Source: Alphaproteobacteria bacterium
GTDB lineage: Bacteria; Pseudomonadota; Alphaproteobacteria; SHVV01
DNA length: 64,000 nt
Assembly (NCBI GenBank): GCA_965261735.1
Contig: OZ253470.1
Span: 3,616,001 to 3,680,000, forward strand
Reading direction: 5' to 3'
A program made the translations under genes and the position numbers. This document shows, in pieces, positions 1 through 33,503 of this stretch (the stretch's first letter is position 1; every line of letters begins with the position of its first letter). Below the pieces are notes generated by a model that worked only from the letters and a program-made list of their open reading frames with translations, made no database searches and was not told the DNA's origin.

Positions 1-184
1 GGGGATGTGGGCAAGGCGCGTAGCGACTTGTCCATCATATCCACAGGCGGGGCGCCGCGGTAGGCCTCGGCCGGCGTTTTTCCCCCGAGCGCCGAGTGCG
101 GCCTCTCGGTGTTGTAGAAGTCGATCCACTCGCCGATGACGCGCCGGGCCTCGAAGCCGTCGGCGAGCTCGCGCAGATAGACGG
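1..184 (-). pseudogene. IS3-family OrfB (DDE integrase core) C-terminal fragment
   Basis: Minus strand reads VYLRELADGFEARRVIGEWIDFYNTERPHSALGGKTPAEAY, a typical IS3 OrfB C-terminus; cut at 184 by the next IS. Confidence 0.8.
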
Positions 185-734
185 TGGAGTGACCCCCTAA
201 AAGGGGTCCAGATTTATTAAAGAGTTTGGCGCATTTTGCCCCCTCGAAAGGAGGACAAAATGAGCCGTAAACGCTACACCTCAGAACAGATTATCAGCAT
301 GTTGCGCGAAGCCGAGGTGGCTTTGGCGCAGGGCCAGTCCGTTGGTCAAGCTTGTCGCACACTCGGCGTATCGGAGCAGAGTTGCTATCGCTGGCGCAAG
401 GAATATGGCGGCCTTCGTACTGACCAGGCCAAGCGTCTGAAGGACCTGGAGAAGGAGAATGGCCGTCTCCGGAAGGCGATCTCGGATCTGACGTTGGATA
501 AGCTGATCTTGCAAGAGGCGCTTGAGGGAAATTGCTAAGCCCCGCCCGTCGCCGGCAGTGTGTTGATCATCTCCAGGCCGAACTGGGAATCTCCGAGCGA
601 CGTGCCTGTGCTGTTGCAGGCCAACATCGCTCAACCCAGCCCAAGAGACCCCGTGGTCGGGATGATGAAGAGGCACTCACGGCCGCGATCATCCGCTTGG
701 CCAGCCAGTATGGCAGATATGGCTATCGGCGGAT
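185..734 (+). mobile_element. IS3-family (IS407-like) element, 3'-truncated by IS256
   Basis: Starts TGGAGTGACCCC; orfA 260-538, then orfB in the -1 frame across a GGGAAAT slippery site; orfB (RQCVDHL...YGRYGYRRM) is cut at the IS256 end at 735. Confidence 0.85.
260..538 (+). CDS. IS3-family OrfA (HTH)
   Basis: MSRKRYTSEQIISMLREAE...YRWRKEYGG...LEKENGRLRK; GGAGG ribosome-binding site upstream. Confidence 0.88.
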   Translation: MSRKRYTSEQIISMLREAEVALAQGQSVGQACRTLGVSEQSCYRWRKEYGGLRTDQAKRLKDLEKENGRLRKAISDLTLDKLILQEALEGNC

Positions 735-1084
735 GATCGTGTCCCGCGGAGTGGTGTAAGAGCGTTGCGCTCTACGCGGCTCCCGGCGGGTAGGGCCGGG
801 ACGTTCAGGCTGCCACGGTGGGCAGCGTGATGGGGACACCATCGCTCAGCGGAGCGATGGATTCCAGCGTCATGTATCTCCTTGAGACGGCCCACTCGTC
901 GTTCTGCTCGAGAAGGATGGCGCCGACGAGCCGTGTGATGGCGGCTTCGTTGGGAAAGATACCGACGACGTTGGTGCGACGCTTGACCTCGGCATGGAGC
1001 CGATGGGGTGGACGCCCCTCCCGACGGCATCGCGATGTGCCAGGTTGGCGGTGTTGTTAACGCCAAGCGAGGAAGGGGGCGTCC

Positions 1085-2107
1085 ATGGAACAGGTTCACA
1101 TGATCGGGATCGATCTGGCGAAGAACAGCTTTCAGCTGCACGGTGCGCGGGCGGATGGGTTGGTTGCGTTCCGCAAGAAGCTGAGCCGGGCGAAGCTGTT
1201 GGACTTTGTGGCTGCGCAGCCACGCTGCACGGTGGCGATGGAGGCGTGCGGCGGCGCGCACCATTGGGGCCGGGAGATCGGCAGTCTCGGCCATGCGGTG
1301 CGACTGGTCCCACCGATCTACGTCAAAGCGTACGTCAAGCGGCAAAAGAACGACGCGTCGGATGCGGAGGCGATCTGCGAGGCGTCGTCGCGGCCGACCA
1401 TGCGCTTTGTGGCTGTGAAGACGGAGGAACAGCAGGCTCGGGGCATGCTGTTCCGGACGCGCGATCTTCTGGTGCGCCAGCGCACCCAGACGATTAATGC
1501 GCTGCGCGGCCATCTGGCGGAGTTCGGTGTCATTGCCCCACAGGGGCCGGCTCATGTCGGCCGGCTGACCTCGGCGCTTGAGGGACCGGCTTCGAGGTTG
1601 CCGGAAGCGGTCCGCGAGCTGGCCGGCCTTCTGCTTGAGCAGATCGCCGGCCTCGATGCGAAGATTGCGGGCCTGGAGAGGGAGGTCCACGTGAGAGCAC
1701 GGCAGGATGAGGAGGCGAGGCGCCTGATGAGCGTGCCGGGGATCGGGCCGATCAGCGCGATGGCAATCCAGGCCTTCGCACCGCCGATGGAGAGTTTCCG
1801 GCGCGGCCGCGACTTCTCCGCTTGGCTCGGCCTCGTGCCGCGCCAGCACACGACCGGCGGCAAGCCGAAGCTGGGCAAGATATCGAAGATGGGCCAGCGC
1901 GATCTGAGACGGCTGCTGATCACAGGCGCGATGACTGTGGTCCGCTGGGCGGTTCGGCGCGGCGTGACGACGGACCCCTGGCTGGCCGGGATGCTGGCGC
2001 GCAAGCCGAGGATGCTCGTCGCGGTGGCGCTGGCCAACAGGATGGCGCGCATCGTCTGGGTGCTACTGACGAAGAAGAAGAGCTACCGGGCTCCCGCCAC
2101 CGCCTGA
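1085..2107 (+). CDS. IS110-family DEDD recombinase/transposase
   Basis: [46 protein letters not shown] motifs; intact 340 aa. Confidence 0.95.
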
Positions 2108-2360
2108 GAGAACGGCGAAGTGCGGGAAGCCGTCGGGGATGTGGGCAGGACGGAGGACAGGTAAGGGCAAAGGTCAACGAGACCGGGTTGGGAAAACCAG
2201 CATCCGAACGGAGAGCTTTCAAGCTCGCGTAACCGATTTGGACCCAATCCGCGTATCTCCATACGGGCCCGCGGCGTGTCATCTGCCGCATAGAGAGGCC
2301 GGACACACGACAGCACCTGACCGCATGCACCGAGCCGACCAAAAACTGCTTGCATCAACG
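2108..2360 (+). ncRNA. Putative bridge RNA / seekRNA of the IS1111-type element
   Basis: Two stem-internal-loop-stem modules; loop segments match the target (CGAACGG 2205-2211; AACCG 2231-2235) and the donor (CCAT 2259-2262; ACACACG 2303-2309). Boundaries approximate. Confidence 0.7.
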
Positions 2361-3652
2361 GGGGCGTCCACACACGTTCGATCGGGTTTGTGGAGTGCAA
2401 TTTCTGGCGGTGCTCCCTGGGGAAGCTCATGTAGGCGAGGACGTCGTGCTCGGCTTCGTCCATGAGAACTGCCAGCTTGGGCACCTTGGGCCTGAGCTGG
2501 TCGGCGACCTGGCGCCACTGGACCTTCGCGCTGTCGGCGTCCTCCTGGGCGAAGGCGGAGACGACGCGCCGGCCCTGGCGGCCGGCATGGGCCAGCAGGT
2601 TGCGGGCGAAGTGCACGCGGCAGCGCTGCCATGTGGCGCCGAGGATCCGGGTCGCGGCGGCCTTCAGGCCCTTGTGGTCGTCGGAGATCACCAGCTTCAC
2701 GCCGCGCAGCCCGCGCCGGGCCAGCGAGCGCAGGAACTCGGTCCAGAAGGTCTCGGCCTCCGACGCGCCGATCGCCACGCCCAGGACCTCGCGGCGGCCT
2801 TGGTCGTTGACGGCCACAGCCACGGTCACCGCGACCGAGACGATGCGTCCGGTCTGGCGCACCTTCACGTAGGTGGCGTCGAGCCACAGATAGGGCCAGT
2901 CGCCCTCCAGCGGTCGATCGAGGAAGCCGGTGACCTTATCGTCGATCTCGCCGCACAGCCTGGAGACCTGGCTCTTGGAGGCGCCCGACATCCCCATCGC
3001 CTGAACCAGATCGTCGACCGAGCGGGTCGACACCCCCTGGATGTAGGCCTCCTGGATCACCGCAGCCAGCGCCTTCTCGGCCATCCGCCGCGGCTCCAGG
3101 AAGCCCGGGAAGTAGCTTCCCTTCCTCAGCTTCGGGATCTTCAGCTCGACCGTGCCGGCCCGCGTCTCCCAGGACCGGTCGCGGTAGCCGTTGCGATGGG
3201 TGATACGATCCGCCGAGCGCTCGCCGTGCCCGGCGCCGGTCAGGCCCTCAACCTCCAGTGCCATCAGCCGCTCGGCCGTGAAGCCGATCATCTCGCAAAG
3301 CAGATCGGCATCGGAGCTCTTCTCCAAAAGCGCGCGCAGGGTCATCATGTCCTGGGTCATCGTGGTTCTCCTTCGGGTCAGGTTGGTTTGCACTAGCCCA
3401 ACCCTAAACCGGAACCGCGATGGCCTCCGCTGTGGATAGCCGGCTTGCCTACGCCAGACTCTCGGCGGTCGCTACGGCAAGCCGCCTACCCACAGCTAAC
3501 AGAGGCTCCAACAACTCCTACACCACGTCCTGGGACACGACCTTCCTCCTTTGCTCAGCAGCCACTGCGGTACCACGCTTTGCGATCCGCGCACTCATTT
3601 TTTGTATATTATTTGGAAGCGGAAAAAGGTTTCGTAAAGCAGCGGAACTAGC

Positions 3653-3967
3653 TTATGCCAGTGCAGGCACTTGTAGTTCCACCGCGTCACCTTTTACGGT
3701 CACATCGAATTTCTGTACCGGTTTGCCGGCGTTGCCAACGCCCTTCCAGACATCGACACGGAATGCGTGCAGGGGGCACTGGACCTCGGTGCCGTCGAAC
3801 TCGCCTTCACCCAGTGATCCACCGGCATGCGGGCAACGATTGTTGATCGCCGCGCAATGCTCGCCAACTCGGAACACGGCAACCCTCAAACGTTCATTAA
3901 CGTCGATGATTTTCGCGCCGTTGTCCGGGATATCGCTCAGTTGCAGATTAATCGTTTGGTCGCCCAC
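3653..3967 (-). CDS. Rieske [2Fe-2S] ferredoxin
   Basis: CPHAGGSLGEG...CPLH Rieske motifs, 104 aa. Confidence 0.9.
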   Translation of the reverse strand: MGDQTINLQLSDIPDNGAKIIDVNERLRVAVFRVGEHCAAINNRCPHAGGSLGEGEFDGTEVQCPLHAFRVDVWKGVGNAGKPVQKFDVTVKGDAVELQVPALA

Positions 3968-4230
3968 GCACTTACCTCACTACTAATTCCGGTGGAGAGA
4001 CTGCCACCAGATGCCCCGCGCGGCAATCTAACGTTGTAGGCGCCCTCGCCGGTCTGATCCCGCGCAATCTGGGCTTTGATGGCGTGCTGGGCTTCCTTCA
4101 GCTCGCGGGCAATAGGGTCGAAGAAGTGAAGGCGCGGGCGGCACGGCGGTGGGCGTCCGAGAAATTCGCAGGCGCCGCCGACGGGGCGGCAGCGAACGCC
4201 ACCCCGCCGGTCGCACACCGCAAAGACCCT

Positions 4231-4479
4231 CTACAGGCCGTTGAGAATGATCCGCATCGCTTTTGCCAAGGCGAGCTGGGCCTCAGTGTGCGAGCCGGAC
4301 TTATGCAAGGATTCACCCTCATCGCGCAGTTGCTTGACTTCGCTGGACTGCGAGGCGTTGAGGCTGACCTTCGACATGGCGGCGTCGATGGCCTTGACGT
4401 CTGCTGGACAATGGAATGCGAGCGCGGGCGCGGAGATCGCAAGCGTGAGCGCCCCGGCAAGGAAAATACGTCCGATCAT
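4231..4479 (-). CDS. Small secreted hypothetical protein
   Basis: Signal peptide ending APALA, then FHCP and a helical body; GGAGG ribosome-binding site. Confidence 0.75.
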   Translation of the reverse strand: MIGRIFLAGALTLAISAPALAFHCPADVKAIDAAMSKVSLNASQSSEVKQLRDEGESLHKSGSHTEAQLALAKAMRIILNGL

Positions 4480-4687
4480 GGCTTCCTCCTGTTTGAACCG
4501 CCGACGGTTTTGCGGGCTTTGAAACTCGTCGAAGGTTAAACACGCGCCGTAGCCGTCTATTCCCGGGCCCGCACGGGCGGGTACGCGGCCGCCACTGACC
4601 CCCAGTTAACGCCTGCGCCTCGAGGAACGCCCTGGACGTGCCGGCGCTGACGGCGGCCGGTGTCCCGACCGCCGATTCAAGCGATAC

Positions 4688-5731
4688 TTACTTTTTGCCG
4701 AAAATCTCCCTGATATTCTCCTGGAAGTACTCCTCCGACACGACCTCGTTCGGCATGGCGTTGGGCACGAGCTTGGCGTCCTTGAGCTTGGCGTAGCCAC
4801 CGCCGATCAGTTCCGGCTTGGCGGGGACTCTTCCTGAGTCGCCGAGGATCTTCTGCGCCGAGTCCGACATCATATAGTCGATGAACAGTTTGCCCGCATT
4901 GGGGTGCGGCGCGTTGGCCGACAGGCTGGTAACCAGGCCCAAGACCGTCATCCATTCCGGCACTCCCCAATCGACGGGAGCCCCGTCGGCCTTCACCGGC
5001 TCGGTGAATTGGGGATAGGCGGCGACGTGAATGGCGATCTCGCCCGACATGAGCATCTCGCGCACCTGCATGTAGCGCCCATATTTGGGCTTCTGAGCGG
5101 CGAGCTTATTCATGTAGTCGAGCCACTTCTGTTCGCCGAGCTCTTGACGCATCGTGACGGCCCAGCTGCGGGCACCGCCGGTCCCCAATGGATCCTGCAT
5201 GCCGATCCTGCCCTTCCACTTCGGATCGAGCAGGTCGTTCCAGGTCTTGGGCTCCTCGCCGGGCTTCACCAGGTTGGTGTTCCAGGCGAAGCTCGTGTTG
5301 TTCATGGCGTACGGATTGTTGTAGCCGTTGGCGTCCCTAAGCGCGGGCGGATAGTTCGCCTGCTGCGGCGAAACGTACTGTGCCAGCAAGTTCTGTTCCA
5401 CCCAGCCCGGCGTGGTCACGACGGTCGACAGCATCACGTCGACGACGTGGCGGCCGGTCTTCGATTCGGTCTCGAAGCGCTGGGCGTATTGGCGGGTGTC
5501 GCCGCGGAAGAAGTCGACGTCGATACCCGGGTACTTGCTCTGGAAATCGTTCTTCAGAGTCTGCAGCAGCTCGATCGGCTGGCCGGAATAGAAGACGAGC
5601 TTGCCCTCTTTCTTAGCGGCTTCGTAAGTGGCCTGCGCATCAGCCGCAGGCGCCGTGAACAGGCCCCCGATAGCCGCAAACACCGCTGCGGCGCCAAGCC
5701 AGCGCCAGCGAATCGGCGAAGTGGTTAGCAT
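4688..5731 (-). CDS. ABC transporter substrate-binding protein (AfuA/Fe3+-thiamine-like)
   Basis: Signal peptide; AKKEGKLVFYS, PKTWNDLLDPKWKG, APHPNAGKLFIDY motifs. Confidence 0.88.
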   Translation of the reverse strand: MLTTSPIRWRWLGAAAVFAAIGGLFTAPAADAQATYEAAKKEGKLVFYSGQPIELLQTLKNDFQSKYPGIDVDFFRGDTRQYAQRFETESKTGRHVVDVMLSTVVTTPGWVEQNLLAQYVSPQQANYPPALRDANGYNNPYAMNNTSFAWNTNLVKPGEEPKTWNDLLDPKWKGRIGMQDPLGTGGARSWAVTMRQELGEQKWLDYMNKLAAQKPKYGRYMQVREMLMSGEIAIHVAAYPQFTEPVKADGAPVDWGVPEWMTVLGLVTSLSANAPHPNAGKLFIDYMMSDSAQKILGDSGRVPAKPELIGGGYAKLKDAKLVPNAMPNEVVSEEYFQENIREIFGKK

Positions 5732-6227
5732 TGGTATTTCTCCCTTGTTCTCGTAATTTGCCTCGATCGCGCAACAACGCTCCGCAGATTAGGCGGTCCA
5801 TGTGACCGGCGCAAGCCTGCGGCCTCGAGGCGCCAAACGCAACTGATTTGCGCCACACTTGGCACTTCCGGACTCGTCCTCTTGGATGGTGAAGTCCTAA
5901 TTTGAAACAGCTCGGTTGTAATTGGCACGACCTTTTCGACTTCAAGAAGCTCTGTCGACCTGACCTATCCGATCGACGGAGGCGAGACGTTCGCCTGAGA
6001 GGCGGGACGTCCAGGTGAAGGGGGGGCGCATCCGGAGTCGGCGACCGCGGCGAGCGTATGAAGCGGCCGGTCATCGGTGAGCCGGTCGGATCTCGGCCCG
6101 GCTACGCGCGCGGATGATCGGAGTGTCGTTCATATGCGCTCTCCGTGATGGATGCGGAAAATGAAGCGCCTGCCCGGAGGGGTTCCGGACGGGGTGCTTG
6201 CCGTGGCGGGCGGTCAGTGGACGAGGC

Positions 6228-18449: not shown

Positions 18450-20002
18450 GGTCGTGTCCCAGGACGTGGTGTAGGAGTTGTTGGAGCCTCTGGTAGCTGT
18501 GGGTAGGCGGCTTGCCGTAGCGACCGCCGAGAGTCTGGCGTAGGCAAGCCGGCTATCCACAGCGGAGGCCATCGTGTGTGGACGCCCCCGTTGATGCAAG
18601 CAGTTTTTGGTCGGCTCGGTGCATGCGGTCAGGTGCTGTCGTGTGTCCGGCCTCTCTATGCGGCAGATGACACGCCGCGGGCCCGTATGGAGATACGCGG
18701 ATTGGGTCCAAATCGGTTACGCGAGCTTGAAAGCTCTCCGTTCGGATGCTGGTTTTCCCAACCCGGTCTCGTTGACCTTTGCCCTTACCTGTCCTCCGTC
18801 CTGCCCACATCCCCGACGGCTTCCCGCACTTCGCCGTTCTCTCAGGCGGTGGCGGGAGCCCGGTAGCTCTTCTTCTTCGTCAGTAGCGCCCAGACGATGC
18901 GCGCCATCCTGTTGGCCAGCGCCACCGCGACGAGCATCCTCGGCTTGCGCGCCAGCATCCCGGCCAGCCAGGGGTCCGTCGTCACGCCGCGCCGAACCGC
19001 CCAGCGGACCACAGTCATCGCGCCTGTGATCAGCAGCCGTCTCAGATCGCGCTGGCCCATCTTCGATATCTTGCCCAGCTTCGGCTTGCCGCCGGTCGTG
19101 TGCTGGCGCGGCACGAGGCCGAGCCAAGCGGAGAAGTCGCGGCCGCGCCGGAAACTCTCCATCGGCGGTGCGAAGGCCTGGATTGCCATCGCGCTGATCG
19201 GCCCGATCCCCGGCACGCTCATCAGGCGCCTCGCCTCCTCATCCTGCCGTGCTCTCACGTGGACCTCCCTCTCCAGGCCCGCAATCTTCGCATCGAGGCC
19301 GGCGATCTGCTCAAGCAGAAGGCCGGCCAGCTCGCGGACCGCTTCCGGCAACCTCGAAGCCGGTCCCTCAAGCGCCGAGGCCAGCCGGCCGACATGAGCC
19401 GGCCCCTGCGGGGCAATGACACCGAACTCCGCCAGATGGCCGCGCAGCGCATTAATCGTCTGGGTGCGCTGGCGCACCAGAAGATCGCGCGTCCGGAACA
19501 GCATGCCCCGAGCCTGCTGTTCCTCCGTCTTCACAGCCACAAAGCGCATGGTCGGCCGCGACGACGCCTCGCAGATCGCCTCCGCATCCGACGCGTCGTT
19601 CTTTTGCCGCTTGACGTACGCTTTGACGTAGATCGGTGGGACCAGTCGCACCGCATGGCCGAGACTGCCGATCTCCCGGCCCCAATGGTGCGCGCCGCCG
19701 CACGCCTCCATCGCCACCGTGCAGCGTGGCTGCGCAGCCACAAAGTCCAACAGCTTCGCCCGGCTCAGCTTCTTGCGGAACGCAACCAACCCATCCGCCC
19801 GCGCACCGTGCAGCTGAAAGCTGTTCTTCGCCAGATCGATCCCGATCATGTGAACCTGTTCCATGGACGCCCCCTTCCTCGCTTGGCGTTAACAACACCG
19901 CCAACCTGGCACATCGCGATGCCGTCGGGAGGGGCGTCCACCCCATCGGCTCCATGCCGAGGTCAAGCGTCGCACCAACGTCGTCGGTATCTTTCCCAAC
20001 GA
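18450..20002 (+). mobile_element. IS256 type A remnant (left end plus short 3' piece) enclosing IS1111 copy 2
   Basis: IS256 left end 18450-18574 joined to the IS1111 right end; IS256 3' piece 19947-20002; intervening transposase gene absent. Confidence 0.88.
18573..19948 (-). mobile_element. IS110-family (IS1111 group) element, copy 2 (recombinase 18842-19864)
   Basis: Near-identical to copy 1 (2 amino-acid differences); CG cores at 18573-18574 and 19947-19948. Confidence 0.93.
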
Positions 20003-32257: not shown

Positions 32258-33503
32258 GATCGTGTCCCGGCGCGTGGTGTAAGAGCGTTGCGCTCTACGC
32301 GGCTCCCGGCGGGTAGGGCCGGGACGTTATGGAGCCGTTCGATCGGGTTTGTGGAGTGCAATTTCTGGCGGTGCTCCTTGGGGAAAGTCATGTAGGCGAG
32401 GACGTCGTGCTCGGCTTCGTCCATGAGAACTGCCAGCTTGGGCACCTTGGGCCTGAGCTGGTCAGCGACCTGACGCCACTGGGCCTTCGCGCTGTCGGCG
32501 TCCTCCTGGGCGAAGGCGGAGACGACGCGCCGGCCCTGGCGGCCGGCATGGGCCAGCAGGTTGCGGGCGAAGTGCACGCGGCATCTTTGCCAGGTGGCGC
32601 CGAGGATCCGGGTCGCGGCGGCCTTCAGACCCTTGTGGTCGTCGGAGATCAACAGCTTCACGCCACGCAGCCCGCGCCGGGCCAGCGAGCGCAGGAACTC
32701 GGTCCAGAAGGCCTCGGCCTCAGACGCGCCGATCGCCATGCCCAGGACCTCGCGGCGGCCCTGGTCGTTGACGGCCACAGCCACGGTCACCGCGACCGAG
32801 ACGATGCGCCCGGCCTCGCGCACCTTCACATAGGTTGCGTCGAGCCACAGATAGGGCCAGTCGCCCTCCAGCGATCGATCGAGGAAGCCGGTGACCTTAT
32901 CGTCGATCTCGCCGCACAGCCTGGAGACCTGGCTCTTGGAGACGCCCGACATGCCCATGGCCTGCACCAGGTCGTCGACCGAGCGGGTCGACACGCCCTG
33001 GATGTAGGCCTCCTGGATCACCGCAGCCAGCGCCTTCTCGGCCATCCGCCGCGGCTCCAGGAAGCCCGGGAAGTAGCTCCCCTTCCTCAGCTTCGGGATC
33101 TTCAGCTCGACCGTGCCGGCCCGCGTCTCCCAGGACCGGTTGCGGTAGCCGTTGCGGTGGGTGATACGATCCGCCGAGCGCTCGCCGTGAGCGGCGCCGG
33201 TCAGGCCCTCAACCTCCAGTGCCATCAGCCGCTCGGCCGTGAAGCCGATCATCTCGCAAAGCAGATCGGCATCGGAGCTCTTCTCCAAAAGCGCGCGCAG
33301 GGTCATCATGTCCTGGGTCATCGTGGTTCTCCTTCGGGTCAGGTTGGTTTGCACTAGCCCAACCCTAAACCGGAACCGCGATGGCCTCCGCTGTGGATAG
33401 CCGGCTTGCCTACGCCAGACTCTCGGCGGTCGCTACGGCAAGCCGCCTACCCACAGCTACCAGAGGCTCCAACAACTCCTACACCACGTCCTGGGACACG
33501 ACC
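32258..33503 (-). mobile_element. IS256 type A variant with 3' internal deletion
   Basis: Both TIRs; TSD TTAGGAAC; several substitutions relative to copies 1-3; the last ~50 codons are missing. Confidence 0.9.

Follow-up and report, generated by a model that had tools for sequence, protein, structure and literature searches.

How does an insertion sequence that sits inside another insertion sequence choose its site, and is that choice written in an RNA of its own? The question is raised by a 64,000-nt stretch of DNA from an uncultured alphaproteobacterium (GenBank assembly GCA_965261735.1, contig OZ253470.1, positions 3,616,001 to 3,680,000). We call this whole stretch the window, and positions refer to it unless another reference is named. 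At 1001-2376 it holds an insertion sequence (IS) of the IS110 family, lodged within an element of the IS256 family. A preliminary description had proposed that its recombinase is of the IS1111 type and is directed by guides of the seekRNA or bridge RNA kind encoded in the 3′ non-coding region (NCR). In this study we conclude, with a probability of about 0.92, that 1001-2376 is an active IS1111-group element of the IS110 family and that its 3′ NCR encodes a structured guide RNA with two modules. It can be placed among the IS1111-type seekRNA elements because every sequence-level feature of that group was found in it, the only departure being the missing IS621-style core in the right donor guide. 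The mechanism has been known since 2024, and the element is a clean further example of it that will not surprise a specialist. For ISEc11, ISPa11, ISKpn4 and ISPst6, re-programmable seekRNAs that co-purify with the transposase have been described (PMC11187229). IS621 was shown to use a bridge RNA that has a target loop and a donor loop, and for 93% of IS1111 elements a bridge RNA was predicted in the right end (PMC11208160); a 2026 review gives the same picture (PMC13604230).

The insertion sequence and its recombinase

The genome, one contig of 5.03 Mb, holds 14 full-length copies of the element at 99%–100% identity, along with five further full-length copies at 80%–82% identity (two sister types) and fragments. 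Counting the CG core at both junctions (1001-1002 and 2375-2376, placed by comparing the flanks with empty sites), the element is a discrete insertion of 1376 bp on the plus strand. The uninterrupted IS256 site reads GGAGC-CG-TTCGATC with a single CG at 59 places in the genome, and contigs from two RNA-library runs (X5 and X6) join position 1000 straight to 2375 with a 2-nt ambiguity. A single CG thus marks either border of the element, in agreement with the preliminary description.

Its one long open reading frame (ORF; 1085-2107, +) encodes a DEDD transposase of 340 aa, within the 330-350 aa of the IS1111 group, and is intact in 13 of the 14 copies and frameshifted in one. The N-terminal DEDD, RuvC-like domain matches PF01548 (residues 7-146, E 6.6e-15) and the C-terminal domain PF02371 (E 4e-22). 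The NCBIfam model NF033542, 'IS110 family RNA-guided transposase', gives 316 bits against a cut-off of 140, and the nearest solved relatives in the Protein Data Bank (PDB) are ISCro4 (E 1.2e-12) and IS621 (E 7.3e-10). The translation carries GL-P----TG, a motif of the GL-P----S/TG type that, like the length range, is given for IS1111 transposases in PMC11187229. The features that mark off IS1111 elements from those of the IS110 group (PMC11187229; PMC11208160) were also found. The subterminal inverted repeats (sTIRs) at 1008-1018 (GTGGACGCCCC) and 2361-2371 (GGGGCGTCCAC), both listed on the plus strand and conserved among relatives, are 11 bp long (7-17 bp in the group); the longer NCR lies downstream of the transposase gene (269 nt at 2108-2376, + strand, versus 84 nt on the 5′ side); and insertion is specific for site and orientation, with solely the core dinucleotide on both sides, at 12 distinct sites and by comparison with empty ones. 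The family assignment made earlier is well founded on these grounds. The closest relative found from a cultured organism, encoded on a Methylocystis rosea plasmid, is 69% identical in protein and annotated merely as 'IS110 family transposase'.

Target guides and insertion sites

Two short segments of the NCR match the DNA on either side of the core. One of them, GTAACCG at 2229-2235 (+), is the left target guide ('B' guide); it has the top-strand sequence of the left target with the core and agrees with the consensus of the left flanks in the genome. The other, ATCCGAACGG at 2202-2211 (+), is the right target guide ('T' guide), whose complement is the top strand of C-CG-TTCGGAT and which covaries with the right flanks. 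In the 5′ to 3′ direction the right guide comes first, then the inner hairpin and then the left guide, an order already read in the preliminary description and reported for IS1111-type seekRNAs (PMC11187229). All the motifs named in that description were found in place, with CGAACGG at 2205-2211, GTAACCG as above, CCAT at 2259-2262, ACACACG at 2303-2309, the outer stem GGGTTGG(G) at 2185-2192 with CCCAATCC at 2243-2250, and the hairpin arms GAGC/GCTC (2213-2216/2223-2226) and GCGGC/GCCGC (2271-2275/2285-2289).

The 14 copies amount to 12 distinct left flanks, the IS256 site being common to three copies. Read toward the CG, these flanks hold G in 10/12, T or C in 10/12, A in 12/12, A in 11/12 and C in 12/12. 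After the CG, TTCG follows in 6 of the 14 copies, GTTCG in two and another sequence in six; ATCCGAACGG fits the (G)TTCG flanks of 8/14 copies, which correspond to 7/12 distinct sites. A preferred target near AAC-CG-TTCG had been predicted from a single off-consensus copy, and the 12 distinct sites, with GYAAC-CG and mostly (G)TTCG, agree with it. Paralogous empty sites with a single CG were found for three targets, and by such sites GGAAC-CG-GTTCGG and CGTAAC-CG-GGCGGTG are simple insertions. Sites of the form G[TC]AAC-CG-TTCG number four in the genome, of which two are occupied, versus 2-3 of ~62 IS256 sites; occupancy therefore tracks the guide match. On these data, site choice seems to be governed chiefly by the left target guide.

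The two sister types, ~80%–82% identical to the main element, have different targets in the same genome. Sister A (four copies) is inserted at GCAAAAA-TG-TACCACG and carries the guides CGTGGTACA and GCAAAAATG at the aligned positions, and sister B (one copy) is inserted at CAAAAT-TG-ACCCC and carries GTGGGTCA and CAAAATTG. In both of them the core has changed from CG to TG, and the right end and the segment at 2303-2309 have both changed from ACACACG to ACAGATG. As a separate observation, the sister A copies (genome positions 4347340, 4173238, 3421883 and 439467) all lie in one short repeat, with ~44 nt of it on the left and 58-77 nt on the right. A search of the genome for the unoccupied, joined target with 11-16-nt motifs gave 0 hits; either all targets are filled or the repeat travels with the element.

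The comparison across genomes rests on a scan of genome contigs that confirmed 537 relatives. Figures are given for the best 80 of these (65%–98% protein identity), which come from metagenome-assembled genomes (MAGs) labelled Alphaproteobacteria, Binatia, Acidobacteria, Chloroflexota, Nitrospinota, Gemmatimonadota/Longimicrobiales and others. Both sTIRs were found by motif search in 67/80 loci, the 13 dropped being L031, L038-L041, L056, L067, L069, L071, L072, L101, L104 and L110. With the three types of this genome these make 70 elements, and after the loss of L073 and L074 in guide extraction 68 are left, with 55 unique guide/site pairs, 40 guide classes and 29 distinct left-guide 5-mers; one site represents each class. 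Over the 5 nt upstream of the core, the left guide agrees with the left flank at 4.58/5 positions, versus 1.45 after shuffling (standard deviation 0.19, maximum 2.12). The right guide was compared with the right flank, reverse-complemented and taken without the core; the longest exact match is 5.47 nt, versus 3.17 nt after shuffling (standard deviation 0.16, maximum 3.77). None of 2000 shuffles was as high for either guide; the guide classes are related, hence these are no strict probabilities, and kinship would raise the shuffled values rather than the observed ones. The left guide matches at 5/5 in 28/40 classes, and the exact run of the right guide is at most 4 nt in 13/40. Both target guides thus follow their flanks, in the sisters and across the 40 classes, in the manner of IS1111-type seekRNAs.

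These figures bear on whether the matches are a coincidence in GC-rich sequence and the protein alone picks the sites. A single 7-mer match in 269 nt is indeed not extremely rare. Against coincidence stand the shuffles, which never reach the observed match of either target guide in the 40 classes, and the two sisters of the same genome, in which guides, target and core have changed jointly; its probability is close to nil.

Donor guide and fold of the non-coding region

The second module matches the end of the element itself. Its left donor guide, ACACACG at 2303-2309 (+), equals the last 7 nt of the element, that is, right end plus core. The donor segment is identical with the right-end 7 nt in 59/70 elements, which comprise seven sequence types, and four more differ at the last core base. 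The remaining 7/70 were mis-parsed by the motif pattern; six of them match in alignment A1, an alignment with nine right-end types in all, and L108 lies outside it. As in a bridge RNA, the left guide of the donor loop matches the left donor (the right end of the element) together with the core. The earlier reading of ACACACG as donor-left plus core is borne out by its covariation with the right end across relatives and sisters.

A consensus fold was computed with RNAalifold on the 42 NCRs of alignment A1 (positions in window coordinates, + strand). It has seven helices and recovers both stem-loop modules. The basal helix (helix 1) pairs GATGTGGGC at 2138-2146 with GCTTGCATC at 2348-2356, the arm that contains TTGCAT, encloses both modules and has compensatory changes in 4/9 pairs. 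A small hairpin (2173-2183) is followed by the outer stem of module 1 (helix 3; 2185-2192 with 2243-2250), in which 5/8 pairs are compensatory and 99.4% of cells paired, by an added pairing (2197-2198 with 2240-2241), and by the inner hairpin GAGC-TTTCAA-GCTC (helix 5; 2213-2226), where pair 122/138 has changed on both sides in 19 sequences. The module-2 stem-loop (2266-2300) consists of helices 6 and 7, with GGCC at 2266-2269/2297-2300 and GCGGC/GCCGC as above; they are 98%–99.5% paired and have a compensatory change in one pair. Standard pairs fill 97.1% of 1468 cells versus 93.8% in shuffled alignments, changes on both sides occur in 12/35 pairs versus 6.1, and 0 of 500 shuffles reached any of five fold measures. 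When the partners were slid by 1-3 columns as a control, pairing was 27%–41%. The fold of the single sequence is modestly better than that of its shuffles (z = -2.4). The two modules that had been drawn from one sequence are thus recovered from homologous ends, with compensatory support.

At three positions the basal helix has a G-U pair in 28-35 of the 42 sequences, and such pairs are possible on the transposase-gene (+) strand only, which argues for an RNA read in the direction of that gene. They also bear on the alternative that the guide segments act as DNA, with single-stranded or hairpin DNA pairing with the target much as in IS200/IS605 elements. This alternative draws on the fact that the tests made here were tests of sequence complementarity. 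On the other strand, the G-U pairs would be A-C mismatches; they are a feature of RNA folding, and the NCBIfam model that names the protein is that of an 'RNA-guided transposase'. We regard guides made of DNA as very improbable.

Observations that weigh against the two-module guide RNA

Several observations tell against the conclusion as a whole or against parts of it, and one of them concerns the right donor guide. The candidate, CTCCAT at 2257-2262 (+), is complementary to ATGG(A/G)G after the core of the left end; it pairs fully with ATGGAG, fits the ATGGGG of the main element with one G-U pair, and its CCAT is invariant in alignment A1. It is also unchanged with the variant left ends CGAGGG (L051/L052), CGATAG (L109) and CGATGGTG (L087 and relatives), and it is followed by AC with CG and TG cores alike, without a complement of the core. 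CTCCAT therefore differs from an IS621-style right donor guide, which includes the core, in a comparison that is weak because the left ends vary little. Of the proposal that CCAT is the donor-right guide, conservation stands, whereas covariation with the left end and the core complement were not found. This suggests that donor recognition may be split, the RNA reading the right end and the protein the left end.

The same facts favor an alternative in which module 1 alone is the working guide, a short seekRNA, while module 2 would serve another role, for example in processing, stability or regulation of the long transcript, and the protein would read the ends via the sTIRs, which are long (11 bp) and conserved. 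For ISEc11, an 82-nt target-only seekRNA supported transposition better than the long form, whose role stayed open in the published account (PMC11187229), and module 2 may be dispensable here because that short form sufficed. Set against this, ACACACG and its eight variants change along with the terminal 7 nt of the element, including the switch of core from CG to TG, which is hard to explain without pairing, and donor-complementary loops are reported in three IS1111-group elements (PMC11208160). We consider a guide confined to module 1 unlikely, and we keep to the two-module guide RNA in what follows.

Right flanks are a further point, since 6/14 copies have one that does not fit the right guide. 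An unmatched right flank is not always the product of rearrangement, because the paralogous empty site is contiguous for at least one of the six. Empty sites of all six were sought in 21 related genomes, with matches in four only (G000 included), all of them repeats, and an unoccupied GTAACCGTTCGG was not found in the genome.

The promoter that had been proposed for the circle junction is a weak match. The predicted right-to-left junction has TTGCAT (2351-2356, as the putative -35), 17 nt and CACGAT, and TTGNNN is found 16-18 nt upstream of NA(C/T)(G/A)AT in 41/43 distinct end pairs, with 17 nt best in 34. In a simple scan the linear element showed no promoter-like site, and ISEc11 is likewise described as having none inside the linear element (PMC11187229). 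The arrangement is thus as proposed, whereas the fit to the sigma-70 consensus is weak, with 3/6 and 3/6 positions in the two hexamers, that is, 6/12. The 17-nt spacing is also set by the sTIR, and TTGCAT forms an arm of the conserved basal helix.

RNA libraries are the next point. In four runs the contigs cover 23-29 of 30 bins over 801-2576, DNA carry-over being possible, and no circle-junction contig was seen among them; such contigs show neither ends, strand nor level, and uncovered stretches prove nothing. Finally, a search of positions 1-6000 against Rfam 15 with E up to 1 gave no match, so no curated RNA family covers the NCR. The RNA-library contigs also include other insertion sites, with GTAAC or GTAAG before the CG, and a C-to-G variant at 2233, with which the guide would read GTAAGCG.

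The IS256-family host and its surroundings

The host element, of the IS256 family (PF00872, E 3e-99; NF033543), extends over 735-3542 on the minus strand, its extent being drawn from occupied versus empty copies. Without the insert it is 1434 bp long, and its transposase gene is broken at 1000/2377. BLAST gives 78 hits to it in the genome, among them 47 full-length uninterrupted copies, of which 36 have an ORF of 393-398 aa. The insertion follows residue 329 of the transposase and removes ~65 C-terminal residues, which we take to be the region of the last catalytic motif of IS256-family enzymes, with inactivation the likely result. The site was described earlier as off-consensus, and in fact its left flank plus core fits the GTAACCG guide at 5/7 positions, and two full copies and one remnant are occupied versus the 59 empty sites (~62 in all).

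It had also been suggested that the insertion sequence rides in a multicopy IS256. The host is multicopy, with its 47 full-length copies; the riding found no backing in diagnostic single-nucleotide polymorphisms (SNPs). Identity between the two occupied full copies is confined to the 2808-bp composite and their outer flanks differ, and they share no private SNP, the single polymorphic site being split 13:11 among the other copies. For genome annotation, the insertion explains several disrupted IS256-family copies in an IS-rich region.

A second copy of the IS1111-group element, known from the BLAST copy census and its flanks, lies in an IS256 remnant at 18573-19948 on the minus strand. It has 68 nt of IS256 to its left and adjoins the terminal 125 nt of IS256 (= window 3420-3544) to its right; it lacks 1043 bp of IS256 (2377-3419) that are present around the first copy. 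Its right flank starts with ATGG, resembling the left end of the element after the core, and two further copies with unmatched right flanks start with AT (ATGTGA and ATAAGC). One origin considered for the second copy was that its right end had recombined with a pseudo left end, the deleted segment ending in ...AACCG-CG-ATGGCC, but the left guide match is 0/5 and the idea was rejected.

An IS3-family orfA (260-538; PF01527) and the start of its orfB (window 191-734) stop at position 735, where the IS256-family element starts, and 1-190 resembles the end of another transposase gene on the minus strand, so that at least 3-4 insertion sequences are nested at the left end of the window. The IS256 copy at 735 shows no obvious target duplication. 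Another IS256-family copy, at 32329-33503, has an internal deletion that joins its right-terminal 60-70 nt to position 260 of the element, a few bases short of the IS1111-type insertion site, and a further truncated copy starts at position 263 (genome 1186282). In another MAG, a 77%-identical relative (L051, L052) is inserted at GCCAGACT-CG-AGGGCGG, a site homologous to the IS256-family terminal region (window 3436-3490). IS256-family elements have therefore been struck by more than one member of the clade, at different sites.

Relatives in other genomes

Transposase relatives at 65%–98% identity occur in MAGs of at least six labelled phyla, and several of these genomes are multicopy, a pattern that suggests horizontal transfer in the recent past among members of a single type of community. 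Some public runs with parts of the element are labelled sponge metagenome, with small shares.

Several relatives are inserted in siblings. The 96%-identical L032 (approximately 2441-3866) lies at GGGCAAA-CG-GTCAAT in the guide-RNA scaffold of a sibling element; its 60-nt flanks are each 100% identical to L050 (1117-1176 and 1179-1238), and its guides GCAAACG and TTGACCG fit the insertion site. L058 and L100 lie inside the right sTIR of a sibling (CACCGGGGG-CG-TCCATAGACG), L090 and L092 inside a sibling donor module (AAGAGGC-CG-GACATACG), and L068 and L077 inside a sibling NCR or right end; in all of these the guides fit the site. A 1-nt scaffold deletion shared by the main element, L032 and L033 (GGGCAAA-GGTCAA) was considered as a shield from insertions of the L032 type and rejected, the target 12-mer being present in just 11/42 NCRs.

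Irregular ends and cores were also seen. Beyond the right end of L103, L108 and L061 comes a stretch from inside that element itself: the right-end repeat of L103 occurs at 3786, 3917 and 4048, a threefold array with a 131-bp period, L108 has its right end joined to sequence 3′ of its own donor-guide segment, and the right end of L061 continues into 273-332. All three have the look of right ends that recombined aberrantly or were duplicated in tandem. In L043, L044, L099 and L103 the core is CG at the left junction and CA at the right, so the two sides of the core can differ. The right target guide of L043 and L044 carries TG, the complement of CA, and their left target and donor guides carry CG.

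Discussion

The proposed mechanism starts from the NCR, which would be read on the strand of the transposase gene into a guide RNA, the long seekRNA being the same thing as a bridge RNA, with a basal helix that encloses two modules. Module 1 would be the target-binding loop and module 2 the donor-binding part, and the conserved CTCCAT probably touches ATGG at the left end. By analogy with the published relatives, we infer that the RNA is bound by the recombinase, that the element excises to a circle and that a promoter arises at the circle junction. Insertion would then take place in one orientation at G-Y-A-A-C-CG-(G)TTCG with strand exchange at the CG core, the left target guide being the stricter determinant. 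The copy in the window would have struck the off-consensus GGAGC-CG-TTCGATC in the part of the IS256-family gene that encodes the C-terminal region, and truncated the protein.

Among known systems, the seekRNA elements of the IS1111 group (ISEc11, ISPa11, ISKpn4 and ISPst6; Siddiquee et al., 2024, PMC11187229) are alike in their DEDD transposase of ~340 aa with GL-P----S/TG, in their sTIRs, in a long NCR 3′ of the transposase gene and in a linear element without a promoter. They also have two short target matches around a small hairpin, the top-strand one coming first in the 5′ to 3′ direction and the bottom-strand one after it, and relatives naturally re-directed by swapped matches. Unlike them, the present element targets GYAAC-CG-TTCGG, resides in an uncultured alphaproteobacterium with relatives in MAGs of several phyla, and is known from its sequence, whereas RNA co-purification and transposition were shown there. 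Here a second module can be read plainly, with its match to the right end of the element itself; PMC11187229 gave the long form no role.

IS621 and ISCro4 of the IS110 group (Durrant et al., 2024, PMC11208160; PDB 8wt6 and 9t56) share with the present element a two-module RNA, the same two protein domains, and three guides (left target, right target and left donor) that each include the core dinucleotide, left guides being equal to the top strand and right guides complementary to it. They differ in that their RNA is encoded in the left end rather than the right and that the order of the guides within the loop is reversed. All four pairings of IS621 include the core (PMC11208160), whereas the candidate right donor guide here has neither a core complement nor covariation. 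Here, moreover, the sTIR is long, the core is CG (TG in the sisters), and the protein is only distantly similar to that of IS621 (E 7e-10, C-terminal part).

A third comparison concerns the habit of inserting into mobile DNA. IS4321/IS5075 and other IS1111 members reportedly target repeated or mobile DNA. As with those elements, insertion here is orientation-specific, at a defined sequence within another mobile element, which is thereby disrupted; unlike there, the IS256-family site is off-consensus and few copies are occupied. Closer to that pattern, the guides of L032, L058/L100 and L090/L092 match sibling elements of their own family exactly.

A wider reading joins these observations, and we offer it tentatively, as a possibility that we would not bet on at even odds. 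Within its MAG community, the clade may be a collection of guides that were naturally re-programmed (at least 29 left-guide 5-mers) while the RNA scaffold stayed the same. Targeting would be asymmetric, the left guide almost always being obeyed and the right one often ignored with insertion still precise; the donor module would read the right end only, the left end being left to protein and sTIR; and several members would be programmed against their siblings. To our knowledge, the asymmetric targeting, the right-end-only donor module and the targeting of siblings are undescribed.

The locus is of use for a group of RNAs that has been less studied than IS621. One genome offers 14 recent copies, a target logo and two sisters in which guides, target, core and end have changed jointly, and ~40 more guide sets from relatives on the same scaffold provide an alignment for defining the programmable positions of IS1111 guide RNAs. 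If the wider reading is true, these elements would compete by disabling each other's guides, through precise insertion into the guide-RNA gene or the right sTIR of a sibling.

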